From: a virus | Virus record (IMG/VR): IMGVR_UViG_3300036791_001038 | Span: 1 to 64,000 of that record | Length of the DNA stretch: 64,000 nt | Strand: one strand, 5' to 3' | Part shown: piece after piece, positions 2,520 through 27,544 of the stretch | Layout: every line of letters begins with the position of its first letter | Numbering within the stretch: the stretch's first letter is position 1 | Translations under genes and position numbers: made by a program | The notes under the pieces: generated by a model | Database searches by the model: none | The model's input: only the letters and a program-made list of their open reading frames with translations | Told to the model about the DNA's origin: nothing

Positions 2520-3236
2520 ATGAATCGCAGCCAGCTTCTCGAAGCCATGAACGCCAACAAGCCTGCTCCCCGCCCCCTGACCACCACCGAGCAGTCCGCC
2601 GCCGCGGGCTCCAAGTACGCCCGCCCCGACGTGGCCCGCCAGGCTGCCGCGGTGGCCCCTCAGCCCTCGGCCGTGACCGAGAAGCAGTCCAACTTCCTGC
2701 GGAAGCTCCTGACCGAGCGGGTGGGGATCACCGAGGCCGAGGACATCCGCAACGCCCTCAACCAGGCCCGCAGCGCCAAGACCCTGGACAAGGGCATGGC
2801 CTCCGAGTTCATCACCCGGCTGCTGGCCATCAAGCCCAACTCGGTGGTCCGCCAGGCCCCCATCTCCTCGGGCCTCCCCGGCCAGGACGGCACCCCGCCG
2901 CTGGCCAAGTCCGATGACGCCTGGAAGCGCCCGGACTGCGTGCCCGACGGCCAGTACGCATTGCGGGGCGAGGACGGGATCATCCGCTTCTACAGCGTCA
3001 ACACCAACGACGGGATCTGCTGGGTGGCCGTCCACGCCTCTGACGAGCGCCACAACATCAAGGGCCGCAGCCGCCACCAGATCCTCGACGCCATCGCCGC
3101 CGATCCCCGCTCCGCCGCCATCCTGTTCGGTCATGAGACCAACCACTGCGGGCGCTGCGGTCGGGAGCTTACCGACGAGGTCAGCCGGGCCAACGGGATC
3201 GGCCCCGTGTGTGCCAGGAAGGTTGGGTGGGCATGA
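2520..3236 (+). CDS. DUF6011-type zinc-finger protein
   Basis: C-terminal CGRCGRELTDEVSRANGIGPVC. GAGG RBS before ATG 2520; a leaderless start at 2487 is also possible. Confidence 0.8.
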   Translation: MNRSQLLEAMNANKPAPRPLTTTEQSAAAGSKYARPDVARQAAAVAPQPSAVTEKQSNFLRKLLTERVGITEAEDIRNALNQARSAKTLDKGMASEFITRLLAIKPNSVVRQAPISSGLPGQDGTPPLAKSDDAWKRPDCVPDGQYALRGEDGIIRFYSVNTNDGICWVAVHASDERHNIKGRSRHQILDAIAADPRSAAILFGHETNHCGRCGRELTDEVSRANGIGPVCARKVGWA

Positions 3237-11322: not shown

Positions 11323-14300
11323 GTGATCAAGTACGCCAGCCTGGAGATCCTCTCCTCCGAGTACGGCGGCGACGGCCCCATCCGCCGTCAGGCCCATCGC
11401 GCCGACTTCGCCTACGACCCCCGACCCGGCTTTCTCTACGTCCGGTCGCGGGCCATCTCCTCGCGAGTCAACGACAACTACGACGGGTTCCCTGCCGAGG
11501 AGATCGAGAAGGGTTACAAGTCCTTCATCGGCAAGCCTGTGTTCGTAAATCACGTCAATGACGACCACCGCCGGGCCAGGGGAGTGGTCATCGCGGCGGC
11601 TCTGCACCACGATGTCAATCCTAATGGTACGCCTGATACCTGGTGTGAAGTACTGATGGAAGTCGATGCTCATCGCTTCCCTAAGCTGGCTCAAGCTATT
11701 GTCCAGGGTCATATTGACAAGACATCGATGGGTGTAGACGTTGAGTATTCCATATGTTCAGCCTGTGGTAATAAGGCTACATCTCCTGCTGAATACTGTC
11801 GTCATATCCCACAACTCAAGGGCAGCAAGATTGTCAGGAGGAATGCAAAGACCGGTAGACCAGAGGAGACTTTGATCTATGAGACGTGCTATGGATTGAG
11901 TTTCTTCGAGAATAGTCTGCTCGTAGAAGATCCCGCCGATCCGACAGCATTTTTCCTTGGAGTTGACAAGCGTGGATTAGATATGAGTCCACACCACGCC
12001 TCGAAGGATCTGGTCGATCAAGCTCCAGGAGACGCCATAGTACATGGCCAGTTCAGCCCTGGTCAAAGAACTGGTTCGAATCTCGCGAACTTCGTCCTCG
12101 GTGAGCTTGGCGCGCCCATGCCAGATACCTCTGGATTGGCGGTCACGGGCGATCTTGTCGGCCATGTTGTCGATGTGGGTACCGACCACCCAGTGGGCGG
12201 GATTCTGGCAAGGCGGGTTGTCGCAGGTATGGCGGACGAACAGCCCATCTGGGATCGGGCCGACCAACTGTTCGTAACCGAAGCGATGGGCATAGGTCGA
12301 GCGACCGTTGACTCGGAGAGCGCCATATCCCTTGTTGGTGCAGCCCCAGGTCCAGGGCCAGCAGGCGTCAGGACCGCCGGAGCGATCAATCCTGGAGAGG
12401 TACCGCTCCATGTCGCCCACGATGACCAGCTTAAACGGTCTGGCCTGGGAGCCTTCGTGGCCAGTTCAGATGAAGAAGGCCCCCGCACCGGCCAGTTCGG
12501 GGACGATCATGCCCTGGTCAATGTCCACCAGGTCAAGTCGCGGCCCAACACCTACTACCTGCACAACCTGTGGGTGAACCCTGATCACCGCGATAAGGGC
12601 ATCGGCTCTCGTCTGATGAAGAGCATCACCGACGAGCATGATGCCAACGGCTCCACGCTGGCCTTGCACACTGATCAGCCTCGATTACAGGAATGGTACA
12701 AAGGCATGGGATTCGAGCCCAAGGAGCGTGATGTCTTCGGCCAGGTGATGGAGCGTCCACCGAGGACGGCTGGACTCAGAGCCTTCGTGGCCGCCAGTTC
12801 AGATGAAGACGACGACCTGTCCACCAAAAGCCCGGCCGAGATCGACGCCCGCCTGGGCGATCACCATACGAAGCTGTATGGCCACCAGGGTCGCCAGGCG
12901 TCGGCCCTGGAGCAGATGCACCACGCCGTGGGGGATCGCCAACAGGGCCGGGGCCAGGGCAAGTTCTGGCAGAAGTCCCACCAGGAGGTCCTCAACCACG
13001 ATCCCTCCACCCTCACCAACCCTCGCCTGGCCCGCGACTACGCCCGCAACCGGACGGCCTATGACTCGGCCGGGGAGGACGCCAAGACCGAGCAGGGCCA
13101 CATCAGCCGCTATGACAACGAGTTCCACAAGCGGGGTGGCTGGTCGAGGTTTTTTCTGGTCCCCGATGGACATATCCACTCCTCGATGCAATGCCACTCC
13201 TGTCGGCCCACCACTCCCTTTAGCTGGTTGCCCAACCTGTCCGGCAAGTCTGAGGGCGAGGCCGTTGAGCAGCACGGCCCGCACCTCTGCACCCATTGCT
13301 TCAAGTCCGCTCCCACCGAGTGGAAGCGGGATCCGGCCGAGACGCGCGCCGAGGAGAAGAAGAAGTCGGGTGAGTATTGCGAGGGCGGCAAGGCCAGCAG
13401 CTACCCCGACGCCGAGGAGCGCGCCCGGCGCAAGGCCACCCATCCGCAAGGCAAGGTCAAGCTAGAGCCCGGCGAGGCCATGTACACCGGCCAGCGGGGT
13501 GGCTACCAGGGCCGTTGCCCCACCTGCAAGACCATCCAAAAGGTCAAGAACTCCGGCGAGTTCTACCAGCACAAGCCGCCCGAGGTACCCAAGGAGGAGA
13601 AGCCCAAGGTCGAGCGGCCGGTGCTACCTGATCCTGGTAAGGGGCTCAAGACCCATCTGCGGCAGAAGCATCAGATGAATACCCATGATTTCGACTCGTA
13701 CCAGCAGTATCAACCGGATAAATCGCTGGATCAGATCCATAGTGATCTGCATGAGAAATACGATAACAATCAGCATGCACCGAACAATCACACCCATGGT
13801 GGGTCTGCGCCGCCTGCCACCACGGTCATGACCCCGCCCAGGGAAGGCTCCAGGAGGGGCCTAAGAGCCTTTGTAGGGGCTGATGCCTCGGGGATAACGG
13901 TGGCCGGTCTCGCGGTGGTGGCCCGCGACACCGGCCGGGTGCTGATGCTGCAGCGCCTGCTCGATGGTAAGGATCCGGCCGGGGGTACCTGGGAATGGCC
14001 AGGCGGTCATATCGGTCAGGACGAATCACCTATCGAGGGAGCCATCCGCGAGTGGAAGGAAGAAGTCGGTCAGCATCTCCCTGAGGGCCATGTAGGGGGC
14101 TCCTGGGACTCCAAGGGGATGTATCAGGGATTCGTGTACGTCATCCCCTCTGAGGACGACATCGAGGTCTACAGCGGCAAGCGACCGGTCACCAATCCCG
14201 ATGATCCCAAGGGCGACAATCCCGAAGCCGTGGCCTGGTGGGATCCCAAGGACCTGCCCGACATGCCCGCTCTGCGCCCTGAGTGCAAGACCACCGACTG

Positions 14301-17300
14301 GTCGCTGTTCAAGCCCGCTGCTATTGCGAAGGTGGCCGTCGAGGAGAAGCCCTCAGAGCCCTGGTATCACAGCGCCGACGACTATGAGGGCGCAGTAGGT
14401 GACCGTACTCATATCACCCGTAATGTGCAGATGGATCTACCCACCCATCTGGTCGCTCATATGCCCGGTGTGATGGATGAGCGTCCTGGCGAACACCGTA
14501 ACATGCAAGGTGATAAGTGGGAGGACTTCAAGAATGACATCTCTGCCAACGGCATCAAAAACCCGCTCTTTATCACGGTGGATCACGGCCAGCGACCCAG
14601 GCTGTCTGAGGGCAACCACCGCAGAGACGCGGCGATTGAGCTAGGCCTCAAGCACGTCCCGGCCCAGGTGCGCTACTACGGTCACGCCGAGCGGGACAGC
14701 GACCTGGAGGACCAGGCCCGCAAGTGGTGGACCCACAATCCCCAGCATCTGCCCAGAACCTCGGCTAGAGCGTCCAGGATCAAATGGGATCAGGTCGAAC
14801 AGGATTACGAACATTCAGGACCGAGTGATTACGGAGGTGCTTACTGGATAACCCCCTCCGGTAAGAACTTGAATGTCGGTGAATACCATTCCAATCTCTT
14901 CAAACATCCGGCCGTTGGTTACAATCCGAATGCTAAGCCGGAGTATGCCGATGAGGATTCCCGTCATGTGCTGGCTCAGGGTGGGGTGCGGATCATGCAT
15001 CTGCCCAACTCCGCCTATGGCAATCGCATAGCCGTCGAGCATCACCATCCTCTCACCGAGGGCCAACAGAAGACCCTGATCAGCTTCGTGCATCGCTCCC
15101 ATCCTGATTCCCTGGACTATGACGGCCCGAATGGCTATCGGCAGTTCGACTTTCCCACTGGGGCCGATGTCCGTAAGCATCTGTCCAAAGAGGCCGCCTA
15201 CGACCTCCTCGGTCCAGGCAAAGGCCACTACTTCGAGCCGGTGGAGGAGGGCAGCGACTGGTGCGCCGTCTGCGGTCACGATCGCCGGGTGACCAAGCAT
15301 CCCCTGCCCAAGCAAGCGGCCGCCGAGCGTCAATATCTCTATCACACTTCTCCCGTTCATAATCGAGCGAGTATTACCGAGAAGGGTCTGCTTCCTAATC
15401 AACCAGGTCATGAAGACGAACCTGAGCTTCCTAAGGGAGTCTATCTTGACTCTGATGAAAAGATGGCTCTCGATACCGGTAATGATTATGGAGAAGATGT
15501 ATGGAAGGTGGATGTCACTGGATTAAAACATCATGTTGATCCTTATTGGGAGGGAGTTGCTCATCGACCTAATACCAGTCATTACGTCAAAGGAGCCATC
15601 CCACCTCATCGTGTGACTCTACACCGGCCTGCATCATGGCATGAATGCTCTGATAAGTCTTGTCACCTTGCAAGGATCGGGCTGCGGGCCTTTGTGGCGC
15701 TGGTGGTCCCCAAGACCTTCTTTCATGGCACCACTGAAGAACTGCAGCCTGGAGATGTCCTGCATCCCGGCAATGAGATGGGGCTGAAGACACACCCTCA
15801 ACTGCACAAGTGGCGGGGGGATCATGTCTGGGCCACCCCCGAGGAGGCCGGGGCCTGGGGCTACTCCGAGCAGGCCGAAACCAGCCGGGGCACCCACCAC
15901 GTTTATGGACCAACGGTCGGTGATCGCCCCCGGCCTCGGGTCTATGAGGTCGAGCCCATGGGACCGGTGCAGAAGCGCCGTCGTCTGAGTCCCTTCGACC
16001 CCGAAGAATACACCATGCCCTCGGCCAGGGTCCTGCGCTCCATCGACATCCCCCACCCCGAGGTGCCGTTACCCACTCAGGGCAAGCCCTCCGGTGGGGG
16101 TATGCAGGGTCGTCTCCCCGGCGAGAAGAGTTGGGAGAACTGGAAGACCCTGGAGCCCGACGCGGCCGATCTCTCCGAGCATTGGGAACTGTCCCGGCGT
16201 CGTCATCCAGAGGCCTGGGCGGCGGGTGATAAGGAAGAGCCAGCCCCAGAGACCGATGAGCATCAGCAGAAGCTCTTCGCGGCTCGAATGGCCGCGCTCC
16301 GGGCCTTCATAGCCGTCAACAGTTCAGATGAAGTACCGCCACCCATGGGGGAGTCGCCCATCCCCGAGGGCCATGTGCGGCTGTTCCACCAGACCTCGGT
16401 GAAGCAGGCCGAGTCGGTGCGCCAGCACGGGCTGACCATGGAGCATGCTCGCGATGTCAGCGGGCCACGCGGCGTCTGGGCCAGTCATGGCACCCGTTTC
16501 TACGGCGAAGGCGATGAGCATGCCACCGTGGAGTTCCACGTCCCTTACGACGAGCTACGCGACACGGCCGGAGGTCAGTCCCCGCATCGGCATCAGCCTC
16601 AGGAGGACTGGGAGAAGAGTACTCACCACACCCTGATTATCCCCCGCTCTATCAAGCCGCATGAGATCTCCGCTATCCATCTGCCCTGGCACAATCGTTA
16701 TCACTACTTCCATGACAACGGCATGACTGATGATGTGAAGAAGGGTGAGTACGACAACCTGTCCGACATGAAGGACTACGGCCCGGCCATCGACAAGATC
16801 AAGCACGAAGCTCTGCGTCATTTGGCCATGCAAGCCGAGGACGAGGTACCGCCCCGGCTCGGGACCGCGCCCATCCCCGAGGACCACGTCCGGCTCTACC
16901 ACCACACCTGGTCAAGGAACGTTCCCGGCATCCGGGAGCATGGCCTGCTGGCCGAGATGGGCCAGGGCGACAGCGGCAAGGGCTACGGCAACGAGGCATC
17001 AGCGGGGGTATGGGCCGCCAGTCAGCATCCCGAGCCTGATCCCCAGAGTGACCGGCATGTGATCGAGTTCCACGCCCATCCAAGAGAGATCGATGTCAAC
17101 GGCCCCTCTCCTGGCCAGGACATCCATAAATGGCAGCAGGGCGATCACAACGTCCTGATGCGGGGCAGTGTGCCGAAAGAGAACATCCTGGCTATTCACG
17201 CCCCTTGGCATACCGCTTATCATCAGATCTCCGAGGATGCCCGCGACCGGGAGGATGTGAAAGGCGGCAAGCTGGACTGGGTCCACAACGATCCCAGCAT

Positions 17301-20300
17301 GAAGGAGATCAGCAAGGCCGTCCACAAGATCCAGTCCGAAGCCAAGAAGACCCGCAACACCGAGAAGCCTCAGCAATGCAACTGGTGCAAGCAGCCCGCC
17401 ACCAAGTCCATGCTGTGGGCCGAGGGTATGGGGTACATCCCCACCTGTGACAAGCATGAGGCAAAGACCCGTGACCACATCGAGAACACCAATGATGACG
17501 AGGTCGTTGCCATCCACCAGATCAAGCAGGGAGCCAAGCAGCCCTATATCGGCAAGGGCTGGTGGCTGACGCCCGAGGGCAAGAAGATCGGGGTCTACGA
17601 CCACTACGAGACCACTCCGGGGATGGCCCGGCAGATGATTCGTCCTCACATGGCCGAGAGTGGTCAGGTCCGGGTCCGTAGCTTCAACAATCAACTCAAC
17701 GTGCAAACGTCGCGGCCGTTCACCGATGCTCAGCGCCAGAGCTTGCTGCTGGATGCCGATAAGCATTCCCGCATGTTCGTGGACGTGCTACACCCCGACA
17801 CCGAGGAGTCCATCCACTCCGAGTCCGGTGGCCCCGAGGACGCCGATCGCATGCTGGCCCGAGCCCACCGGGCCGCCATACCCCACACGGCCGCCCTGAC
17901 TCTCCTGGCCGATCAGCCCTACGCCGGAGGTCACACCTTCCAGTTCATCAAGGCCACCCCCAAGGTGATGGGTGGTAGCTCCCTGCACGAACTGCGGGCC
18001 TATCCCGAGGGCGAGTCCAAGCGCTACTCCGGGTCGCTGCGATGGTCATACAAGTCTGGTGAGATTGCCGGTATCGACGTGGACAAGGACCAGCAGCGTC
18101 AGGGCCTGGCCACCGAGCTACTGGGCCGGGCACGCGATATCGCCGCCACCACCCGAGGGGTGATCGCTCCCAAGCACTCCGATCAACGCACCAACGAGGG
18201 AGAGGCTTGGGCGCGCTCGACCGGCGATCGGCTGCCCCGGCGGCTCACCGGACTGGGGGTGTTCGTGGCCGCTTTTGGACAACCACAGCTATTCGATCCC
18301 GGTAGTGGTGGCCATGAGCATCTACCCAATCCTCGGGGTGGGCTGGACTGGCATCACGGCACTCCGCATCACTTCGAGAGCTTCGAGGAGGAGCGCCCGG
18401 AAGAAGACGATCCCTATGGCGGGTATGACTTCGAGACCGGCGAGAAGTTCAAGCAGCCCCATTGGAACACCCACCTGGGCCAGCACTGGACCTCCCTGCC
18501 GGGCGTGGCCGAGCATTTCGCCAAGGGCCAGTACGGTCAGTATGGGGAAGGCAAGGGTCATGTCATCACCGCTAACCTGGGCGTAAAGCACCCCAAGGAC
18601 TACAAGCTCGAATCCCACATGGACAAGGAGGCCTTCGAGCATGCCTGGGACGGGCATGATCCCCACGATTACCACGATGAGTTCTGCCATAACCCGGAGC
18701 ATCGAGACGACCCCGACGAGGAGCATTTCGATGACGAGCCCTACCACTACAACGACCAGCATGAGCGCGGCGACGAGGTGGACCGCCAGGTCCAGGCCCG
18801 CTACCGGGACCGGGAGCAGCAGGGCGAGTGGCTGAGCCAGCATCCCGACTCGGGCTCCCTGGCCGAGAGCTTCAAGGACAAGGTCCGCCAGGAGGGTCAT
18901 GACGGCATCACCTACGGCAACGAGCTAGAGGGGCCGCACGGCCACCAGTGCGCCATCACCTTCGATGAGCATCAGATCCACAACCCCCGCCGCCGGGCTC
19001 TGGGCAAGCTGGCGGTCGAGGACTACGACACCCTGTACCACATCACCGATCAGCACCACTTCGCCCTGGACCCTGAGCATGCCCCCCAGGACAACGCCTT
19101 CGCCATCCAGGACCGCTCCCACTACAAGGGCCTATACGCGACCAAAGACCCTGACACCTGGCGGGCGCAGGGCTACCACCGGCCTTACGTGGCCGAACTG
19201 CACGTCCCCCATGGGCTGGCCCAGCAGGAGCGCTGGCACGGGGAGAGCTTCATTCCGGCCGAGCATTTCGACAAGGTCAAGGTCAACCGGGTCATCCCCT
19301 TCGATGCTCATCAGCGTGAGAAGTGGGGTGAGCCCGGCACCATCGAGAGCTACCACGGCACCCACTACCAGACCAACCAGCCGCTCAAGAAGAAGCCGGG
19401 CTGGGAGTCATCGGACTACTACGAGGCGGATGAGAACGAGCCTGCAACCAAGGACGTGCGCGACTTCACCCCGAAGGAACACACCCGTCATCTCAAGCGG
19501 CTGCGCGAGTACCTGCACCACGTCCAGGGTTGGGGCTGGAACGAGTTCAACCAGAAGCATGAGCATGTCGGCATAGGCGAGGACGAACAAGACGAAGAGG
19601 GCATGCCCATCCGGCGGGACCAGAAGGGCCAGCCCATGACCCGAGATCGCTATGCAGCCAAGACCGGGCCGATCTACTACCACGGCCATGGCCGGGGAGG
19701 AGCCCGAGCCGCGACCGGCGATCCCGAGTGGGACGACAACCTCTTCGTCAGCCACGATCCCGAGGTGGCCAAGCTGTACGGCCCCAAGCTGGATCGCATC
19801 CAGATGGCCCCCGACACCAAGGTGGCCCGCCATGAACACTGGCTGGGCGCGCAGAGGCCTGACATTGCCCTCAATCTCCTGCGTAAGGCCAAGGCTAAGA
19901 ACGCCGATGTGATCGAGTTCCACAAGCCTCATGACTTCGTCGGTCACATCATCCTGAACAAGGACAAGATCGTCAGCCGGGAGCCCTATGATCCCGGTCA
20001 TACCGCCATGGCCGATCGAGGCGACTACGGCATGGAGCATTCCCCCCACCTGGAGGGACCGGCCTTGCACGAACTGGGGCACAGCTATCCCGACATCTAC
20101 GACCATCCCGAGTACTACGGCTCCATGCATGAACGGCCCGGCCGGGAGTCAGCCCGCGCCCTGAAGAGGGCCAAGGGCATCGGCCCCGACGACCAGGTCA
20201 GCATCTACCGGGCCGCTCCGCACGGGGTCACCACCTTCAACCACGGCGACTGGGTCACCCTCTCCCCCAGCTACGCCCAGCAGCACAGCCGCCACCCCAC

Positions 20301-21045
20301 CGACGAGAGCCGGGACATGCCCATCTACAAGGCCCAGGTGGCGGCCAAGCACGTCCACTGGGACGAGAACGACATCAACGAGTTCGGCTACTCCGGCCCC
20401 GAGGTACCCGCCACCAAGCACCTACCGGGTGGTCCTGACGCGCCGCGCCTGGCTGCCTTCGTGGCCGCCCTGGACCCCGGCCAGGTCTCCGAGGCATCCC
20501 CGGAGGAGTTCCATCGCCGCTTCTCCGAGGCTATGGAGGGCAGCCCCTTCGTCCACCATGTGACCAACCACACTCCCGAGGAGATCCGCTCGGGCGGCAT
20601 GCGCCCGCTCACCACCAACGGTGGCGACACCGGGGTGCTGGTGCATGACCACGGCGACGGCCGTATCGAGGCCACCGGCCTGTACAACCGCTCCAAGGTC
20701 AAGGGCGCGGGGGTCGATCTGCTCAAGCATACCATGGAGCATCATGGCGTGAACTACGTCGAAGCGTATGGACCTAGACTTCCCCAGTTGTACCGACGAG
20801 CAGGCTTCCAGACCACCGAGAAATATCGCTTCGATCGTGAGCAGGCTAACCCTGGCTGGGATTTTCGCCAGTTCGATTCGCCTAGCTATCACATCATGCA
20901 CCCACGTAACACTCAGAAGTCTGGTAAGGTGATCTCATGGCCTTCGACCGCCAGCGTTCCATTCCTGTTCCCATCAACGAGCCTGAGCCCTCCGAGGGGG
21001 CTATCAGCCTTTGGGATGTTGACTGGGACGACCCCGAGCAGGTAG
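11323..21045 (+). CDS. prohead protease fused to a polyvalent multi-effector polyprotein (GNAT x3, NUDIX, ParB-like, ART-like x~8, Zn modules)
   Basis: N-term F.GKPVFVNH...TSMG..V.YSICS.CG...YC.H...FFENS protease-like domain, positioned before scaffold and capsid genes. NUDIX box GGHIGQDESPIEGAIREWKEEVG. ParB EGNHR. GNAT V.PDHRDKGIGSRL. Multiple YH-x-T/HGT ART-like starts. Confidence 0.85.
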   Translation: MIKYASLEILSSEYGGDGPIRRQAHRADFAYDPRPGFLYVRSRAISSRVNDNYDGFPAEEIEKGYKSFIGKPVFVNHVNDDHRRARGVVIAAALHHDVNPNGTPDTWCEVLMEVDAHRFPKLAQAIVQGHIDKTSMGVDVEYSICSACGNKATSPAEYCRHIPQLKGSKIVRRNAKTGRPEETLIYETCYGLSFFENSLLVEDPADPTAFFLGVDKRGLDMSPHHASKDLVDQAPGDAIVHGQFSPGQRTGSNLANFVLGELGAPMPDTSGLAVTGDLVGHVVDVGTDHPVGGILARRVVAGMADEQPIWDRADQLFVTEAMGIGRATVDSESAISLVGAAPGPGPAGVRTAGAINPGEVPLHVAHDDQLKRSGLGAFVASSDEEGPRTGQFGDDHALVNVHQVKSRPNTYYLHNLWVNPDHRDKGIGSRLMKSITDEHDANGSTLALHTDQPRLQEWYKGMGFEPKERDVFGQVMERPPRTAGLRAFVAASSDEDDDLSTKSPAEIDARLGDHHTKLYGHQGRQASALEQMHHAVGDRQQGRGQGKFWQKSHQEVLNHDPSTLTNPRLARDYARNRTAYDSAGEDAKTEQGHISRYDNEFHKRGGWSRFFLVPDGHIHSSMQCHSCRPTTPFSWLPNLSGKSEGEAVEQHGPHLCTHCFKSAPTEWKRDPAETRAEEKKKSGEYCEGGKASSYPDAEERARRKATHPQGKVKLEPGEAMYTGQRGGYQGRCPTCKTIQKVKNSGEFYQHKPPEVPKEEKPKVERPVLPDPGKGLKTHLRQKHQMNTHDFDSYQQYQPDKSLDQIHSDLHEKYDNNQHAPNNHTHGGSAPPATTVMTPPREGSRRGLRAFVGADASGITVAGLAVVARDTGRVLMLQRLLDGKDPAGGTWEWPGGHIGQDESPIEGAIREWKEEVGQHLPEGHVGGSWDSKGMYQGFVYVIPSEDDIEVYSGKRPVTNPDDPKGDNPEAVAWWDPKDLPDMPALRPECKTTDWSLFKPAAIAKVAVEEKPSEPWYHSADDYEGAVGDRTHITRNVQMDLPTHLVAHMPGVMDERPGEHRNMQGDKWEDFKNDISANGIKNPLFITVDHGQRPRLSEGNHRRDAAIELGLKHVPAQVRYYGHAERDSDLEDQARKWWTHNPQHLPRTSARASRIKWDQVEQDYEHSGPSDYGGAYWITPSGKNLNVGEYHSNLFKHPAVGYNPNAKPEYADEDSRHVLAQGGVRIMHLPNSAYGNRIAVEHHHPLTEGQQKTLISFVHRSHPDSLDYDGPNGYRQFDFPTGADVRKHLSKEAAYDLLGPGKGHYFEPVEEGSDWCAVCGHDRRVTKHPLPKQAAAERQYLYHTSPVHNRASITEKGLLPNQPGHEDEPELPKGVYLDSDEKMALDTGNDYGEDVWKVDVTGLKHHVDPYWEGVAHRPNTSHYVKGAIPPHRVTLHRPASWHECSDKSCHLARIGLRAFVALVVPKTFFHGTTEELQPGDVLHPGNEMGLKTHPQLHKWRGDHVWATPEEAGAWGYSEQAETSRGTHHVYGPTVGDRPRPRVYEVEPMGPVQKRRRLSPFDPEEYTMPSARVLRSIDIPHPEVPLPTQGKPSGGGMQGRLPGEKSWENWKTLEPDAADLSEHWELSRRRHPEAWAAGDKEEPAPETDEHQQKLFAARMAALRAFIAVNSSDEVPPPMGESPIPEGHVRLFHQTSVKQAESVRQHGLTMEHARDVSGPRGVWASHGTRFYGEGDEHATVEFHVPYDELRDTAGGQSPHRHQPQEDWEKSTHHTLIIPRSIKPHEISAIHLPWHNRYHYFHDNGMTDDVKKGEYDNLSDMKDYGPAIDKIKHEALRHLAMQAEDEVPPRLGTAPIPEDHVRLYHHTWSRNVPGIREHGLLAEMGQGDSGKGYGNEASAGVWAASQHPEPDPQSDRHVIEFHAHPREIDVNGPSPGQDIHKWQQGDHNVLMRGSVPKENILAIHAPWHTAYHQISEDARDREDVKGGKLDWVHNDPSMKEISKAVHKIQSEAKKTRNTEKPQQCNWCKQPATKSMLWAEGMGYIPTCDKHEAKTRDHIENTNDDEVVAIHQIKQGAKQPYIGKGWWLTPEGKKIGVYDHYETTPGMARQMIRPHMAESGQVRVRSFNNQLNVQTSRPFTDAQRQSLLLDADKHSRMFVDVLHPDTEESIHSESGGPEDADRMLARAHRAAIPHTAALTLLADQPYAGGHTFQFIKATPKVMGGSSLHELRAYPEGESKRYSGSLRWSYKSGEIAGIDVDKDQQRQGLATELLGRARDIAATTRGVIAPKHSDQRTNEGEAWARSTGDRLPRRLTGLGVFVAAFGQPQLFDPGSGGHEHLPNPRGGLDWHHGTPHHFESFEEERPEEDDPYGGYDFETGEKFKQPHWNTHLGQHWTSLPGVAEHFAKGQYGQYGEGKGHVITANLGVKHPKDYKLESHMDKEAFEHAWDGHDPHDYHDEFCHNPEHRDDPDEEHFDDEPYHYNDQHERGDEVDRQVQARYRDREQQGEWLSQHPDSGSLAESFKDKVRQEGHDGITYGNELEGPHGHQCAITFDEHQIHNPRRRALGKLAVEDYDTLYHITDQHHFALDPEHAPQDNAFAIQDRSHYKGLYATKDPDTWRAQGYHRPYVAELHVPHGLAQQERWHGESFIPAEHFDKVKVNRVIPFDAHQREKWGEPGTIESYHGTHYQTNQPLKKKPGWESSDYYEADENEPATKDVRDFTPKEHTRHLKRLREYLHHVQGWGWNEFNQKHEHVGIGEDEQDEEGMPIRRDQKGQPMTRDRYAAKTGPIYYHGHGRGGARAATGDPEWDDNLFVSHDPEVAKLYGPKLDRIQMAPDTKVARHEHWLGAQRPDIALNLLRKAKAKNADVIEFHKPHDFVGHIILNKDKIVSREPYDPGHTAMADRGDYGMEHSPHLEGPALHELGHSYPDIYDHPEYYGSMHERPGRESARALKRAKGIGPDDQVSIYRAAPHGVTTFNHGDWVTLSPSYAQQHSRHPTDESRDMPIYKAQVAAKHVHWDENDINEFGYSGPEVPATKHLPGGPDAPRLAAFVAALDPGQVSEASPEEFHRRFSEAMEGSPFVHHVTNHTPEEIRSGGMRPLTTNGGDTGVLVHDHGDGRIEATGLYNRSKVKGAGVDLLKHTMEHHGVNYVEAYGPRLPQLYRRAGFQTTEKYRFDREQANPGWDFRQFDSPSYHIMHPRNTQKSGKVISWPSTASVPFLFPSTSLSPPRGLSAFGMLTGTTPSR
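11977..12420 (-). CDS. HNH homing endonuclease nested antisense in the giant ORF
   Basis: CWPWT...GYG...YAHRFGYE...VRHTCDNPPCQNPAH..VGT..DNM.D; C-terminal AKLTEDEVREIR HTH. TAAGCT -10 lies 7 nt upstream. Confidence 0.9.
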   Translation of the reverse strand: MGDMERYLSRIDRSGGPDACWPWTWGCTNKGYGALRVNGRSTYAHRFGYEQLVGPIPDGLFVRHTCDNPPCQNPAHWVVGTHIDNMADKIARDRQSRGIWHGRAKLTEDEVREIRTSSLTRAELAMYYGVSWSLIDQILRGVVWTHI

Positions 21046-21176
21046 CCGCGCTCAAGGCCCAGACCGAAGCCGAGCTTGAGGCCGAGAACCCCGAGGATTG
21101 GGCCGCCATGACGCCCGAGCAGAGGGAGAACTCCTGGAAGGCGGCCCTCGCTCAACTCGGCGTACACGGCGTCTGA
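20937..21176 (+). CDS. small acidic protein overlapping the polyprotein 3' end
   Basis: AAGGTG RBS, coherent acidic helical sequence. Ends just before late-motif copy 2. Confidence 0.6.
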   Translation: MAFDRQRSIPVPINEPEPSEGAISLWDVDWDDPEQVAALKAQTEAELEAENPEDWAAMTPEQRENSWKAALAQLGVHGV

Positions 21177-21214: not shown

Positions 21215-23449
21215 ATGTCTCTGGTCGCCACCGCCAAAGAGCAGACCACGGTGCCGCCCGAGGTGGACACCATGCGGGAGGAGATCTGCCCGGTCTGCGG
21301 CTCGGACGACTCCTACGTGGGTGACAAATGCTCGGTGTGCGGCTTCGAGAAGCCCCCGTCGCTGTTCATGGACCCCGACACCTCCCTGGCCCAGAACGTC
21401 AACCTGCGCCAGCAGGACCAGGAGGACGCCAACGACGACGGGGCCGGGGATCTGCAGTGCCCCGAGTGCGGGGAGACCTTCTCCTCGGCCGAGGCCCTGA
21501 ACCAGGCCGGGGACCCCCACCTGGCCCCGGCCGCCCAGACCATCCCGGCCGAGCAGGACCTGGTCGCTCCCGAGGAGGGCTCAGAAGAGCCGGAGGGGCC
21601 GCTGGAAGCCCCCGAGGACGAGGATGAGAACCAGATGGCCCCAGGCCCGCCTGAGGACGCCATGGGCGTTCCTGGGCAGCCTGAGCCCCCCGAGGAGGAC
21701 CAGGAGGAGGAGCTACCACCGGGTCAGCCCGAGGACCAGGACGAGGTAGCTCCCGGCCAGGAGGGACCAGAGCCGCCCGAGGGGGAGCTTGACGGCGAGG
21801 AGATCCCCGAGGGGGCCGAGGAGGAAGAGGAGCCTGAGCAGGCCGAGCAGGAACAGGTCGATCCCGAGGCCATGGCCGAGCAGCAGTATGCCGCCGATCA
21901 GCAGGGCATGGCCGACACCGGCTACGAGGAGGGCGACATCTGCCCCAACTGCGGTCAAGGCATCCTGCAGGAAGTCGGCCCGGAAGGCCCCATCGTCCCG
22001 CCCGAGACCAGCAGCCCGCGCACCGCCCCTGACTCCGGTGACCAGGGCCAGTCACCCTTCCCGGTCAGCGACGAGGACGAAGAGGATGAGGGTGACCAGG
22101 AAGAGGCACCCGGCGCAGACGAGGCCGAGGAGTCCGGCGGTCAGTCCGACATAGCCCCCGAAGACCAAGACGACGGGGATGAGGACCAGGAGCCAGACGA
22201 TGAGGACGGGGACGAGGATGAGGACGAGGATGGCATCCCTCCCTGGGTGAAGAAGAAGACAAGTTCACATGAACTACCAGCCATAGGAAGGAGCCCCAGT
22301 ACCATGGCCAACCGCACCCGCACCAACGGTCGCGTCACGCCCCGACAGCCCCAAACCACCACCCGCACCGCCAACACCGCTCAGCCCGAGCCCACGCCCC
22401 GGACCTCGGTGCGGACGGCCCTGCACGCCTCGCTCAACCAGCAGGCCCATGTGCTGCGCCAGATGACCGCGGCCTGCCAGCAGGAGCGCATCCTGCGCCT
22501 GGCGGCCGAGGCCCGCATCACCACCTTGGAGCGCCAGATGCTGCGCTTCGCCCAACTGGCCGGGGCCGATCACGATGCCGAGCTTCGCTCCCTCAACGAG
22601 GAGGGCTACCGGACCCACACCGCCCTCATGGCCCGTGCCGCCTCCCTGCATGACACCACTCGGCACATTGCCGACCAGCGCGACCCCGGTCAGCCCGTGC
22701 CCGAGCCCGCCCCGGCTCCTCCGGTGGTGACCGAGCAGGAGGCGGCCCAGCCCGCCGGGCGGGACGACGTGACCCAGCTTGGGGCCACTCCGGTGGCCGA
22801 CGTGTCCGCCGACGCCACCCTGGCCGTGGACGAGCCCTACGGCACGGCTGCCTTCGAGCCCCTCAACCTCAACCAGGTGGACGTGACCGCCCCGGTCCAG
22901 AACACCCAGGGCCATCTGCCCCCCGAGCAGACCATCATCCCCGTCGAGGTGCGCGTCGGTGACCCCGACGATCCCCAGCCCAGCTTCGGTTGGACCATCG
23001 ACGGTGGCAACCCCTCCGGTCAGACCGGGGGCTCGGTGGGCTCAGGGGCTCCCACGGGAGCCGGGCGCGGCGCACCAGGGGTCCAGCCCGGCACCACCGC
23101 GGCCCGCAACGACGGCCAGGTCTCCCTGGGAGCCCTGCGGCTGGCTCGGCTCCGCATGCAAGCTGGTATTGCCCCGGCCAACCAGGACGACCTGTCCATC
23201 GCCGCGGCCATCCAGGACAACCCGGCCCTGACCGTCGAGGCCATCAACACCGAGATCCGCACCCTGACCCAGGTGTTGTCGGCCCAGCCTCAGGCCCAAC
23301 AGCGCACCGCCGCCGCCAGCCGTCGCCTGGTCCCCCGTGCCGCGCCGGGGGCCGAGCCCATGCCCTCTCTGGCCCCGAGCGGGGAAGGCCCCATTCGATC
23401 CCACGCTTCTACCGGGCAAGTTACGGCAGATGAGATGCTCTTCGAATAG
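21215..23449 (+). CDS. head assembly/scaffolding protein (Zn ribbons, acidic region, coiled coil)
   Basis: CPVC..CSVC, CPEC, CPNC; D/E/P-rich middle; coiled coil. Lies between protease and capsid genes. Internal AAGGAG-ATG at 22304. Confidence 0.7.
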   Translation: MSLVATAKEQTTVPPEVDTMREEICPVCGSDDSYVGDKCSVCGFEKPPSLFMDPDTSLAQNVNLRQQDQEDANDDGAGDLQCPECGETFSSAEALNQAGDPHLAPAAQTIPAEQDLVAPEEGSEEPEGPLEAPEDEDENQMAPGPPEDAMGVPGQPEPPEEDQEEELPPGQPEDQDEVAPGQEGPEPPEGELDGEEIPEGAEEEEEPEQAEQEQVDPEAMAEQQYAADQQGMADTGYEEGDICPNCGQGILQEVGPEGPIVPPETSSPRTAPDSGDQGQSPFPVSDEDEEDEGDQEEAPGADEAEESGGQSDIAPEDQDDGDEDQEPDDEDGDEDEDEDGIPPWVKKKTSSHELPAIGRSPSTMANRTRTNGRVTPRQPQTTTRTANTAQPEPTPRTSVRTALHASLNQQAHVLRQMTAACQQERILRLAAEARITTLERQMLRFAQLAGADHDAELRSLNEEGYRTHTALMARAASLHDTTRHIADQRDPGQPVPEPAPAPPVVTEQEAAQPAGRDDVTQLGATPVADVSADATLAVDEPYGTAAFEPLNLNQVDVTAPVQNTQGHLPPEQTIIPVEVRVGDPDDPQPSFGWTIDGGNPSGQTGGSVGSGAPTGAGRGAPGVQPGTTAARNDGQVSLGALRLARLRMQAGIAPANQDDLSIAAAIQDNPALTVEAINTEIRTLTQVLSAQPQAQQRTAAASRRLVPRAAPGAEPMPSLAPSGEGPIRSHASTGQVTADEMLFE

Positions 23450-24446: not shown

Positions 24447-25439
24447 ATGACTCTGGTTGCCAACGTTGCGGGGCTAGCTCCAAAGCGGGCCAAGAAGTCC
24501 GACGACTACGTCGCTGAGATCCTCAAGCGGCGCGGCGGGGATGGCAACGTCCCGTCGCTGACCCATGAGGCCAAGGTCCGCAAGCTCTCCCTGATCCTCC
24601 AGGACGAGGTCAACGGCATCCGCCGTCTGGGCGTGGGCATGGTCGGACCCATCCAGTTGAAGCTGCGCTACCAGGGCATCACCCGCAACGTGCTGATCGA
24701 GGACCCAGTCACCCCCGGCACCCCGGTCGAGTACGACGTGTGGGACGACCTGGGCCAGGCCTACCTCATGAGTGGCACCGAAGGCGAGGTCCGGGTCACC
24801 CCCTTCGAAGGCAAGCGCCTGCCCATCCGGTTCTGGCGTATCGCCTCCCGTCCGGCCATCCGCAAGGAGGACCTGTTCTACCTCCGCATCAACGCGGTGG
24901 AGCAGGCCCAGGACGAGACCAAGCAGGCCATCATGAAGCAGGAGGACTCCCGCCTCCTGGTCATCATCCAGGCCGCCCTCACCGACTACGCCTCCAGGCC
25001 CGACCATGTCGTCACCCCCAACCACACCGTCTACGAGGCCAGCGGCTACTTCACCCCGCAGTCCATGTACACCGCGGTGGCCCAGTCCGACATGCACGAA
25101 CTGCCAGCCGGGCGCATGCTGGTCAACCCCTTCGACTACCGGGACTTCTTCCGCTGGGACATCAACACCACCGGCTGGGCCTTCAAGGACCGCATTGTGG
25201 CCGGGGAGCAGATCCAGACCTTCGGGGAGTTCAACTTCCAGCGCTCCATCATGGTCCCCCAGGGCCAGATGTACCTGCTGCCCAACCCGGACTTCCTGGG
25301 CGTGTTCCCGGTGCTGTACTCGCTCGACGTGGAGGAGAACCACAACGTCGAGGCCTTCTGGAAGGGCTGGGTTTTCGATGAGATGGTCTCCATGGCCATC
25401 CTCAACCCCAGGGGCATCACCACCGTCCTCAAGGGCTAG
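24447..25439 (+). CDS. major capsid protein
   Basis: 330 aa, strongest codon bias, AAGGAG RBS. PIQLKLRYQGITRNVL..D and GWVFDE.VSMAILNPRG recall cluster-C-like HK97-fold capsids. Confidence 0.85.
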   Translation: MTLVANVAGLAPKRAKKSDDYVAEILKRRGGDGNVPSLTHEAKVRKLSLILQDEVNGIRRLGVGMVGPIQLKLRYQGITRNVLIEDPVTPGTPVEYDVWDDLGQAYLMSGTEGEVRVTPFEGKRLPIRFWRIASRPAIRKEDLFYLRINAVEQAQDETKQAIMKQEDSRLLVIIQAALTDYASRPDHVVTPNHTVYEASGYFTPQSMYTAVAQSDMHELPAGRMLVNPFDYRDFFRWDINTTGWAFKDRIVAGEQIQTFGEFNFQRSIMVPQGQMYLLPNPDFLGVFPVLYSLDVEENHNVEAFWKGWVFDEMVSMAILNPRGITTVLKG

Positions 25440-27515: not shown

Positions 27516-27544
27516 AGGCCCCCGCGTCGAGGGAGGAATGCCCT

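Follow-up and report, generated by a model that had tools for sequence, protein, structure and literature searches.

Phages are known to inject enzymes together with their DNA, and the 'polyvalent' head proteins have been predicted to be processed, without defined sites having been described before. How a chain of this kind might be taken apart is the question raised by a 64,000-nucleotide (nt) stretch of viral DNA (hereafter referred to as the window), which covers positions 1 to 64,000 of the 77-kb IMG/VR virus record IMGVR_UViG_3300036791_001038. The virus has relatives among the Cluster C mycobacteriophages (Bixzunavirus) and among Gordonia phages, including Stormageddon. An open reading frame (ORF) at 11323–21045 on the plus strand encodes a 3240-residue polyprotein, in which a protease at the N terminus is followed by many cargo enzymes, and along which a heptad of the form G-L-x-A-F-V-A recurs. 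Here we ask what the heptads do. Judging from sequence, structural models and analogy, we put at roughly 60% the probability that they are cleavage sites of the polyprotein's own N-terminal protease, cut after the final alanine or glycine. The initial annotation had proposed either cleavage or docking; the fold of the protease, a candidate capsid-protein site that aligns with a cut in phage G, sites resembling the R and M sites of herpesviruses, and the predicted disorder of the linkers favour the first of these. The heptad thereby offers a concrete and testable site grammar for a large protein family (551 clusters).

A heptad that recurs between cargo domains

Seven strong copies lie on the plus strand, in one frame of the one ORF, where the initial annotation had placed them. 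Copy 1 (GLGAFVA, residues 374 to 380, 12442–12462) is followed by SSDEE and a GNAT domain. Copy 2 (GLRAFVA, residues 484 to 490, 12772–12792) has PPRTA upstream and falls at a cassette boundary in the relatives P0004, P0006 and P0007. Copies 3 (GLRAFVG, residues 846 to 852, 13858–13878) and 4 (GLRAFVA, residues 1453 to 1459, 15679–15699) stand directly ahead of folded domains, with a NUDIX domain beginning 11 residues past the former and an Arr-like ADP-ribosyltransferase (ART) domain 7 residues past the latter. Copies 5 (ALRAFIA, residues 1658 to 1664, 16294–16314) and 6 (GLGVFVA, residues 2310 to 2316, 18250–18270) coincide with cassette boundaries in P0002 and P0003, and in P0003 and P0004, respectively. 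Copy 7 (RLAAFVA, residues 3042 to 3048, 20446–20466) precedes the last GNAT-like cassette, and P0003, P0005 and P0009 have the same variant with the same cassette. Three copies (at 374, 484 and 1658) continue into SSDE, as had been noted, whereas the description of the copies as 'usually just after Arg' proved too loose: arginine immediately precedes two of eight copies and lies within five residues upstream of six of eight.

The recurrence is neither a chance or low-complexity artefact nor a DNA-level repeat. In 2000 shuffles of the polyprotein, the full heptad was expected 0.0015 times against seven observed, and the core L-x-[AV]-F 0.61 times against eight observed, all of them motif copies. 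A scoring matrix built from the relatives P0002–P0005 alone recovers the same seven at 16–23 bits, with 0.03 matches of at least 12 bits expected. When the entire 77-kb contig is scanned in six frames, only the seven heptads reach at least 20 bits; the next-best matches (at most 15.4 bits) are antisense and lie in non-coding frames with a GC content at third codon positions (GC3) of 0.54–0.65. Two minus-strand candidates, GLHPFVA and GLHPFIA at 27520 and 27978, were rejected as antisense and non-coding on the grounds of that GC3, the lack of family matches and junk-like sequence. The codons vary among the copies (GGC, GGA or GGG; CTG, CTC or CTA; AGA, CGG or GGA), as the initial annotation had said, and a DNA-level repeat is excluded because they differ.

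Among 30 unique heptads, conservation begins at G-L and stops one residue past the terminal alanine, with basic residues upstream and acidic residues downstream. The last residue is alanine in 25 and glycine in five, and the next is alanine in 17, methionine in four, serine in three and valine in three. Compared with the herpes-type (V/L/I)-x-A↓S (↓ marks a cut, known or candidate), the heptad would have phenylalanine at P3, and the putative P1′ is serine in 3 of the 30. Glutamate, after which T4-type capsid targeting sequences are removed, was not found at the motif edge, and no tag on stand-alone internal proteins was found in the coding frames of G000 and of the relative G001.

The copies sit between domains and not inside them, as had been proposed: none falls within any Pfam envelope of the polyprotein. 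The Pfam domains GNAT (residues 403 to 469), NUDIX (863 to 980), ParB_N (1058 to 1119), Arr-ms (1466 to 1551) and a second GNAT (about 2204 to 2277), all read on the plus strand, pass or approach the Pfam cut-offs, and a weaker ART-PolyVal match (about 2344 to 2552; E 0.012, 16.8 bits against a cut-off of 31.2) rises to 28.1 bits in P0007. In an AlphaFold2 (AF2) model of residues 360 to 1140, copies 1, 2 and 3 lie in stretches with a predicted local distance difference test score (pLDDT) below 50 (model residues 1–28, 110–138 and 454–499, respectively), between blocks of pLDDT 60–89; stretches below 50 make up 23% of the model. This predicted disorder is supportive rather than decisive because the underlying alignment has only seven rows.

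The stronger statement that the heptads mark domain boundaries holds in part, since none is inside a domain, yet several domains can share one segment and some junctions carry weaker variants. Two of these, ALGKLAV (residues 2559 to 2565, 18997–19017, +), which is GLQAFAG at the same junction of P0006, and YAAKTG (19651–19668, +), which corresponds to SLQAFA, look from their sequences like decayed heptads at junctions that lack a strong copy. Another degenerate copy, ALRHLAM (residues 1830 to 1836, 16810–16830, +), heads the second unit of a tandemly duplicated module (…EVPP..IPE.HVRL[FY]H…; residues about 1665 to 2020, 16315–17400, +), and its flanks parallel those of copy 5 (…EDEVPP…IPE.HVRL), as if the linker had been duplicated with its cassette and had then degenerated. 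Among the cargo, a Cys/His-rich segment (residues 491 to 845, 12793–13857, +) matches phrog_2433 (function unknown; E 1.5e-44, profile of 230 residues), and this cassette therefore also occurs as an independent family of phage proteins.

The heptads might instead serve as docking or retention peptides, each keeping its cargo module in the prohead through contact with the inside of the capsid, the scaffold or the portal, with any cutting elsewhere, for example at upstream [KR]TA; we regard this as unlikely. HK97-fold shells do bind short cargo peptides, as in encapsulins and the HK97 protease tail, although encapsulin cargo peptides are of the G-S-L type and the heptad differs from them in sequence. 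Several copies have [KR]TA directly before GL (PPRTA-GL, PPKTG-GL, PHKT-GL), and in the AF2 model copies 2 and 3 form a short helix of low confidence that has leucine and phenylalanine on one face; both features would suit docking. Against it, one address would suffice for cargo that is already covalently tethered to the protease, and the sharp drop in conservation past the alanine fits a scissile edge. Nor was the strict motif seen outside the polyprotein gene in G000 and G001: all forward-strand matches in G000, and four of four in the complete 157-kb G001, lie inside that gene, and the single reverse-strand match in each was judged to be non-coding.

The N-terminal protease and its candidate substrates

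The protease domain occupies residues 1 to 222 (11323–11988, +) and was recognized from PHROGs, AF2 fold and gene context. It matches phrog_18299 ('head maturation protease') with E 1.9e-23, is about 50% identical to the 'capsid maturation protease' of Cluster C mycobacteriophage and Gordonia phages, and is 27–38% identical to the 'head maturation proteases' of jumbo phages and to gp19 of phage G (38% for gp19). The AF2 model of the domain (pLDDT 70, predicted template modelling score 0.67) has T4 gp21 (5jbl) as its top VIA-align match (Z 8.3, root mean square deviation 3.3 over 121 residues), next to the varicella-zoster virus protease (1vzv, Z 7.9) and the proteases of human cytomegalovirus as well as Kaposi's sarcoma-associated herpesvirus. 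Foldseek likewise places herpes proteases on top, with probabilities of 0.90–0.96 and E values of only 0.01–0.04. His77 (in FVNH) and Ser135 (in TSMG) are invariant across 25 relatives. These data give moderate support to a model in which the N-terminal domain is a serine protease of the assemblin/T4 gp21 type, with His77 and Ser135 as candidate catalytic residues.

The gene neighbourhood has the adjacency to scaffold and major capsid genes that is a trait of head-maturation proteases. The order in the window, which is the same in Tonenili and Stormageddon, runs from the protease-polyprotein through a scaffold-like ORF and a phrog_2783 ORF to the major capsid protein (MCP). The scaffold-like protein (21215–23449, +; 744 residues) is acidic, carries zinc ribbons and is homologous to the C-terminal part of the protease–scaffold fusions of relatives, including those of Tonenili and Stormageddon. 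In the window and in the related locus L003 it is a separate gene, whereas in many relatives, Tonenili and Stormageddon it is fused to the protease–cargo chain, which suggests that a herpes-like protease–scaffold gene has been repeatedly split and fused.

Both ends of this fused arrangement carry candidate sites. In pseudorabies virus the herpes R and M sites are cut after alanine (YLQA↓T and VQA↓S), and cutting at the maturation site frees the scaffold from the capsid protein (PMC4498786). In most aligned relatives, and also in Tonenili, [KR]TA or L..FA stands 15–22 residues past the DPADPTA of the protease domain, an R-site-like position. The last 40 residues of the relatives' scaffolds keep PR[TQ]AA..PSFAG ahead of a …DLF tail, an M-site-like position, and the window's scaffold has QQRTAAA (23300–23317, +) and MPSLAP (23360–23377, +) before its own …EMLFE tail.

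Phage G provides the strongest support for cleavage at the heptads, in that a homologous protease accompanies a capsid protein apparently cut after G-R-V-A-L-A. N-terminal sequencing showed that its capsid protein, which is homologous to those of Bxz1 and Myrna, is shortened from 282 to 255 residues (Hua et al. 2017, PMC5646251); by arithmetic, the sequence of the phage G record and the loss of 27 residues place the cut after G-R-V-A-L-A27. The window's MCP (24447–25439, +) matches phrog_2522 with E 2e-93, and an alignment anchored on the block M-x-x-P-I-[RQ]..Y-Q-G sets the phage G cut opposite G57-I-R-R-L-G62↓V (residues 57 to 62, 24615–24632, +), a candidate maturation site in a stretch that is conserved in all relatives. 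The pattern G[LIF]xx[LF][VIL]?[AG] matches the MCP once, at GIRRLG (0.1 expected), and the polyprotein six times (0.5 expected). This resemblance argues for a protease substrate and against a docking peptide.

A second, motif-like candidate in the MCP, GLAPKRA↓KK (residues 9 to 15, 24471–24491, +), lies after a hypervariable N terminus and just before the conserved KKSDDYV; the corresponding residues in relatives are GLRPRVA, GLKPRTA and SLRGRVA, and in Tonenili GLGRFA. From its sequence, GLAPKRA may mark a further place of trimming or belong to a short delta-like propeptide. In phage G, the tail of the gp19 protease (L044, 1841–2743) carries EKVA↓SKSG and LKIA↓SEKN, and gp21 (L044, 3269–4729) ends in KKTAKSAPRSLGG...SLFENGG, which matches the actinophage-like scaffold-tail motif. 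The [KR]-x-A grammar therefore seems to predate the clade of the window.

In the mechanism that we propose, the 3240-residue chain would be made late in infection, and its protease domain would co-assemble with the scaffold (21215–23449) and the capsid protein (24447–25439) into the prohead, dragging the tethered cargo inside. The activated protease would then cleave G-L-x-A-F-(V)-A/G on the C-terminal side of its small final residue, and by the same activity the tail of the scaffold would be trimmed, as would the capsid protein at GIRRLG↓V. Cutting would free about seven cargo pieces of 103, 355, 600, 198, 645, 725 and about 156 residues, which hold GNAT, NUDIX, ParB-like and several ADP-ribosyltransferase-like enzymes; these pieces would be retained in the head and delivered into the host together with the DNA. 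The case is built on motif statistics, linker position, the fold and family of the protease, gene order, family-wide variants and cassette shuffling; co-assembly, the scissile bond, timing and ejection into the host are steps that we infer. The segment RTAGLRAFVAASSD is a candidate linker substrate, which would join a reporter pair.

That the cutting is done by another protease, encoded by the host or elsewhere by the phage, we consider very improbable. In its favour, the A-F-A of the six-residue form of the motif resembles the A-x-A rule of signal peptidase. The record covers 77 of about 155 kb, so that half of the genome is missing, and phage G virions also contain ClpP (PMC12484599). However, F-V-A, H-F-A and K-T-A do not fit A-x-A, the type of motif tracks the protease lineage, and a motif stands directly after the protease domain, like a self-release site.

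Cassettes, linker dialects and the ends of the chain

About 180 relatives retrieved share the layout. A length-matched search yielded 36 other giant protease-polyproteins, on contigs of up to about 167 kb, several of them near 155 kb, and a search of the whole library yielded 551 clusters (50% identity) with a homologous protease at E ≤1e-30; in 150 of the 150 best of these, the protease is N-terminal and bears a long extension (up to 2400 residues). Many relatives are single protease–cargo–scaffold chains.

The linker motif has dialects. The closest clade uses GLxAFVA, and P0006, P0007 and P0039 use a six-residue GLxAFA (10–11 copies in P0006 and P0007). In more distant lineages, LLQHFA and [KR]-T-A occupy the corresponding junctions, as in GPTKYS-LLQHFA compared with GPTKYS-SKTAS. 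At the junction orthologous to copy 1, P0039 reads GLRAFA↓SSDEE and the window GLGAFVA↓SSDEE; the Ala–Ser edge is therefore kept. In a set of 56 proteins, 86 occurrences of L..F(V)A compare with 11 expected, and 172 of [KR]TA with 46 expected. In an unbiased count of tripeptide enrichment in 180 family proteins, KTA ranks seventh (169 observed, 44 expected), to which we give little weight because the sequences are related and each has about one conserved copy.

The cassettes of the window occur in different orders in P0002–P0009, with block edges on motifs at 484, 846–858, 1654–1663, 2310–2320 and 3042–3051 and other edges without a motif. The suggestion of the initial annotation that the motif lets cassettes be added agrees with this arrangement, in which relatives hold the same cassettes reordered, with the motif at many junctions. 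In base composition, the polyprotein (GC3 0.74) lies below the capsid gene (0.93) and the scaffold (0.85). Such values fit either weaker selection on codons or cargo cassettes that are foreign or were acquired recently. A fuller picture, which we offer tentatively, is that this dsDNA phage lineage would treat any heptad-flanked enzyme cassette placed between protease and scaffold as plug-and-play cargo, brought into the prohead and excised there by the maturation protease. The heptad would then be the element that is recognized and cut and, as the new C terminus, also a retention tag, and the dialects (GLxAFVA, GLxAFA, LLQHFA and KTA) would co-evolve with the protease in different lineages.

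The shuffled cassette orders, with many block edges on motifs, would also be expected if the heptads were uncut spacers at cassette junctions, serving independent folding or cassette exchange within one giant polyvalent chain. Delivery takes place without cutting in polyvalent proteins such as the N4 virion RNA polymerase (PMC5512222), and from the antisense filler described below it is clear that a linker can tolerate junk sequence. We nevertheless think it improbable that the heptads are spacers only. Gly, Ser, Pro or acidic residues usually abound in passive linkers, in place of an invariant L..F core kept through synonymous change; the codons are too different for exchange to be driven by 21-nt DNA homology; the motif is missing from many block edges; the heptad resembles the capsid and scaffold sites; and a folded 350-kDa chain would be hard to eject through the tail.

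Several observations weigh against cleavage of the heptads by the N-terminal protease. The protease matches no Pfam family (E ≤1) and no PDB sequence (E ≤10), and its family assignment therefore rests on fold, PHROGs and gene context, where the fold matches are themselves moderate (pLDDT 70, and a Z of about 8, close to the background range of the tool). T4-type relatives of this fold cut after glutamate, not alanine. The phage G cut is deduced from lengths and not from a printed peptide, gp19 as its maker is an assumption, and the window's MCP site has glycine, not alanine, at the aligned P1. The low pLDDT of the linkers may stem in part from the poor alignment, and when AF2 was used to dock the motif in cis, the tail stayed disordered (pLDDT about 40) and the motif was not placed in the active site of the protease, an uninformative outcome. 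Furthermore, several relatives end with the motif 1–12 residues from the C terminus (LAAFAAL*, LAAFAL*), where cutting seems pointless; copies at or within 12 residues of the C terminus occur in P0004, P0006, P0007, P0008, P0011 and P0017. In these six relatives the motif resembles a terminal tag, and docking or a dual role is possible because such extreme copies fit a tag better than a cut site.

The linker before copy 1 has been remodelled by an insertion. An intact HNH homing-endonuclease gene (11977–12420, −; Pfam HNH_3, E 1.3e-8) lies antisense within the polyprotein ORF, between the protease domain and copy 1, and the plus frame remains open throughout. Residues 224 to 373 are thus not a domain, contrary to what had been supposed, but the antisense reading of this gene, about 150 residues of filler; the region has a GC3 of 0.74 on the minus strand compared with 0.57 in the plus frame. 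The insertion is absent from the relatives compared (P0002–P0007, P0009, P0010, P0012 and P0039), and it removed a [KR]TA site that is present at the same point in relatives (in P0009, GLTAKTASRPLAGLGVFVA).

At the other end of the chain, the degenerate eighth copy that had been proposed is present (GLSAFGM, 20998–21018, +), although it scores 6 bits, a level that a shuffled protein is expected to reach 1.25 times. Probably a run-on reading, it is unlikely to be a genuine copy, because the end of the polyprotein there overlaps a conserved ORF in the −1 frame. This ORF (20937–21176, +; 79 residues) overlaps the final 109 nt (the last 36 codons) of the polyprotein, has a Shine–Dalgarno-like AAGGTGA 5 nt upstream of its own ATG, and encodes a conserved mini-domain (ISLWDVDWDDPEQ...AALAQLGV) that forms the in-frame C terminus of the polyprotein in L003/P0003, where it is preceded by QQKTAALP. 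Relative to L003, the window has a 56-nt insertion just upstream of the ORF. In P0006, the run-on frame reads through this region into further cassettes. A programmed frameshift from polyprotein to scaffold was ruled out, since the scaffold frame is open only from 21197 and there is no overlap; no X_XXY_YYZ slippery heptamer was seen by eye.

Comparison with known systems

Our literature searches found no description of the linker motif or of capsid processing in Cluster C. With cleavage at the heptads, cargo release would join the release site, the maturation site and the trimming of the capsid in a herpes-like scheme, and it suggests a route by which new anti-host enzymes can be added to a virion, namely cassette insertion. 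If it is correct, the heptad and the protease domain would form a simple handle for loading chosen proteins into the HK97-fold capsids of actinophage-like viruses, and the cargo (ADP-ribosyltransferases, NUDIX, GNAT and ParB-like nuclease) would supply early counter-defence effectors ready for study. The packaging of ARTs and NUDIX enzymes in heads is a known theme (PMC9503650).

Polyvalent proteins resemble the window's chain in joining many effector domains (ART, GNAT, ParB-like and NUDIX) in one protein encoded among virion genes. For these proteins, packaging and injection are predicted and processing by an embedded peptidase is proposed (Iyer et al. 2017, PMC5512222); the main processing domain is a zincin-like MPTase, and assemblin-like peptidases are described as rare and 'always at the C termini', whereas the assemblin-like domain of the window is N-terminal. 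No MPTase or MuF match was found in the window polyprotein, and a keyword search of PMC5512222 turned up no reiterated linker or site motif.

The closest parallel in architecture is herpesvirus pUL26, in which an N-terminal serine protease of the assemblin fold likewise heads a longer chain. Both have a self-release site after the protease, putative in the phage family, and a further site, here a candidate, tens of residues before the scaffold C terminus, which in pUL26 binds the capsid protein; many relatives of the window protein are true protease–…–scaffold fusions. Unlike pUL26, the window's protein has up to about 3000 residues of unrelated enzymes after the protease and seven or more reiterated candidate sites, its scaffold is encoded by a gene of its own, its motif (G-L-x-A-F-V-A) is longer, P1′ is not a fixed serine, and the host is bacterial.

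Among phages, T4 gp21 and the prohead proteases of phiKZ and SPN3US use one short motif to process the capsid protein and the scaffold as well as many proteins that are internal or ejected. They share the fold of the window's protease and, in the mechanism proposed here, its use of a single motif for capsid, scaffold and internal proteins. Their substrates, however, are separate products with N-terminal propeptides, cut after glutamate (L/I-x-E, A/G/S-x-E), whereas the cargo of the window is one chain in which P1 is predicted to be alanine or glycine. Bacillus phage G has a homologous protease (gp19, 38% identity) and capsid protein (gp27), and the gp21 tail KKTAKSAPRSLGG is like the scaffold motif of the window; its protease, unlike that of the window, is a 300-residue protein without a cargo polyprotein.

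RNA-virus polyproteins, such as those processed by picornavirus 3C, also combine a chain-embedded protease with short reiterated sites between enzyme domains, although the 3C fold is unrelated, the genome is RNA, and processing there serves gene expression and not capsid loading. By analogy, the loading and release of enzyme cargo by the phage would most likely proceed in the way that herpesviruses and RNA viruses process their polyproteins.

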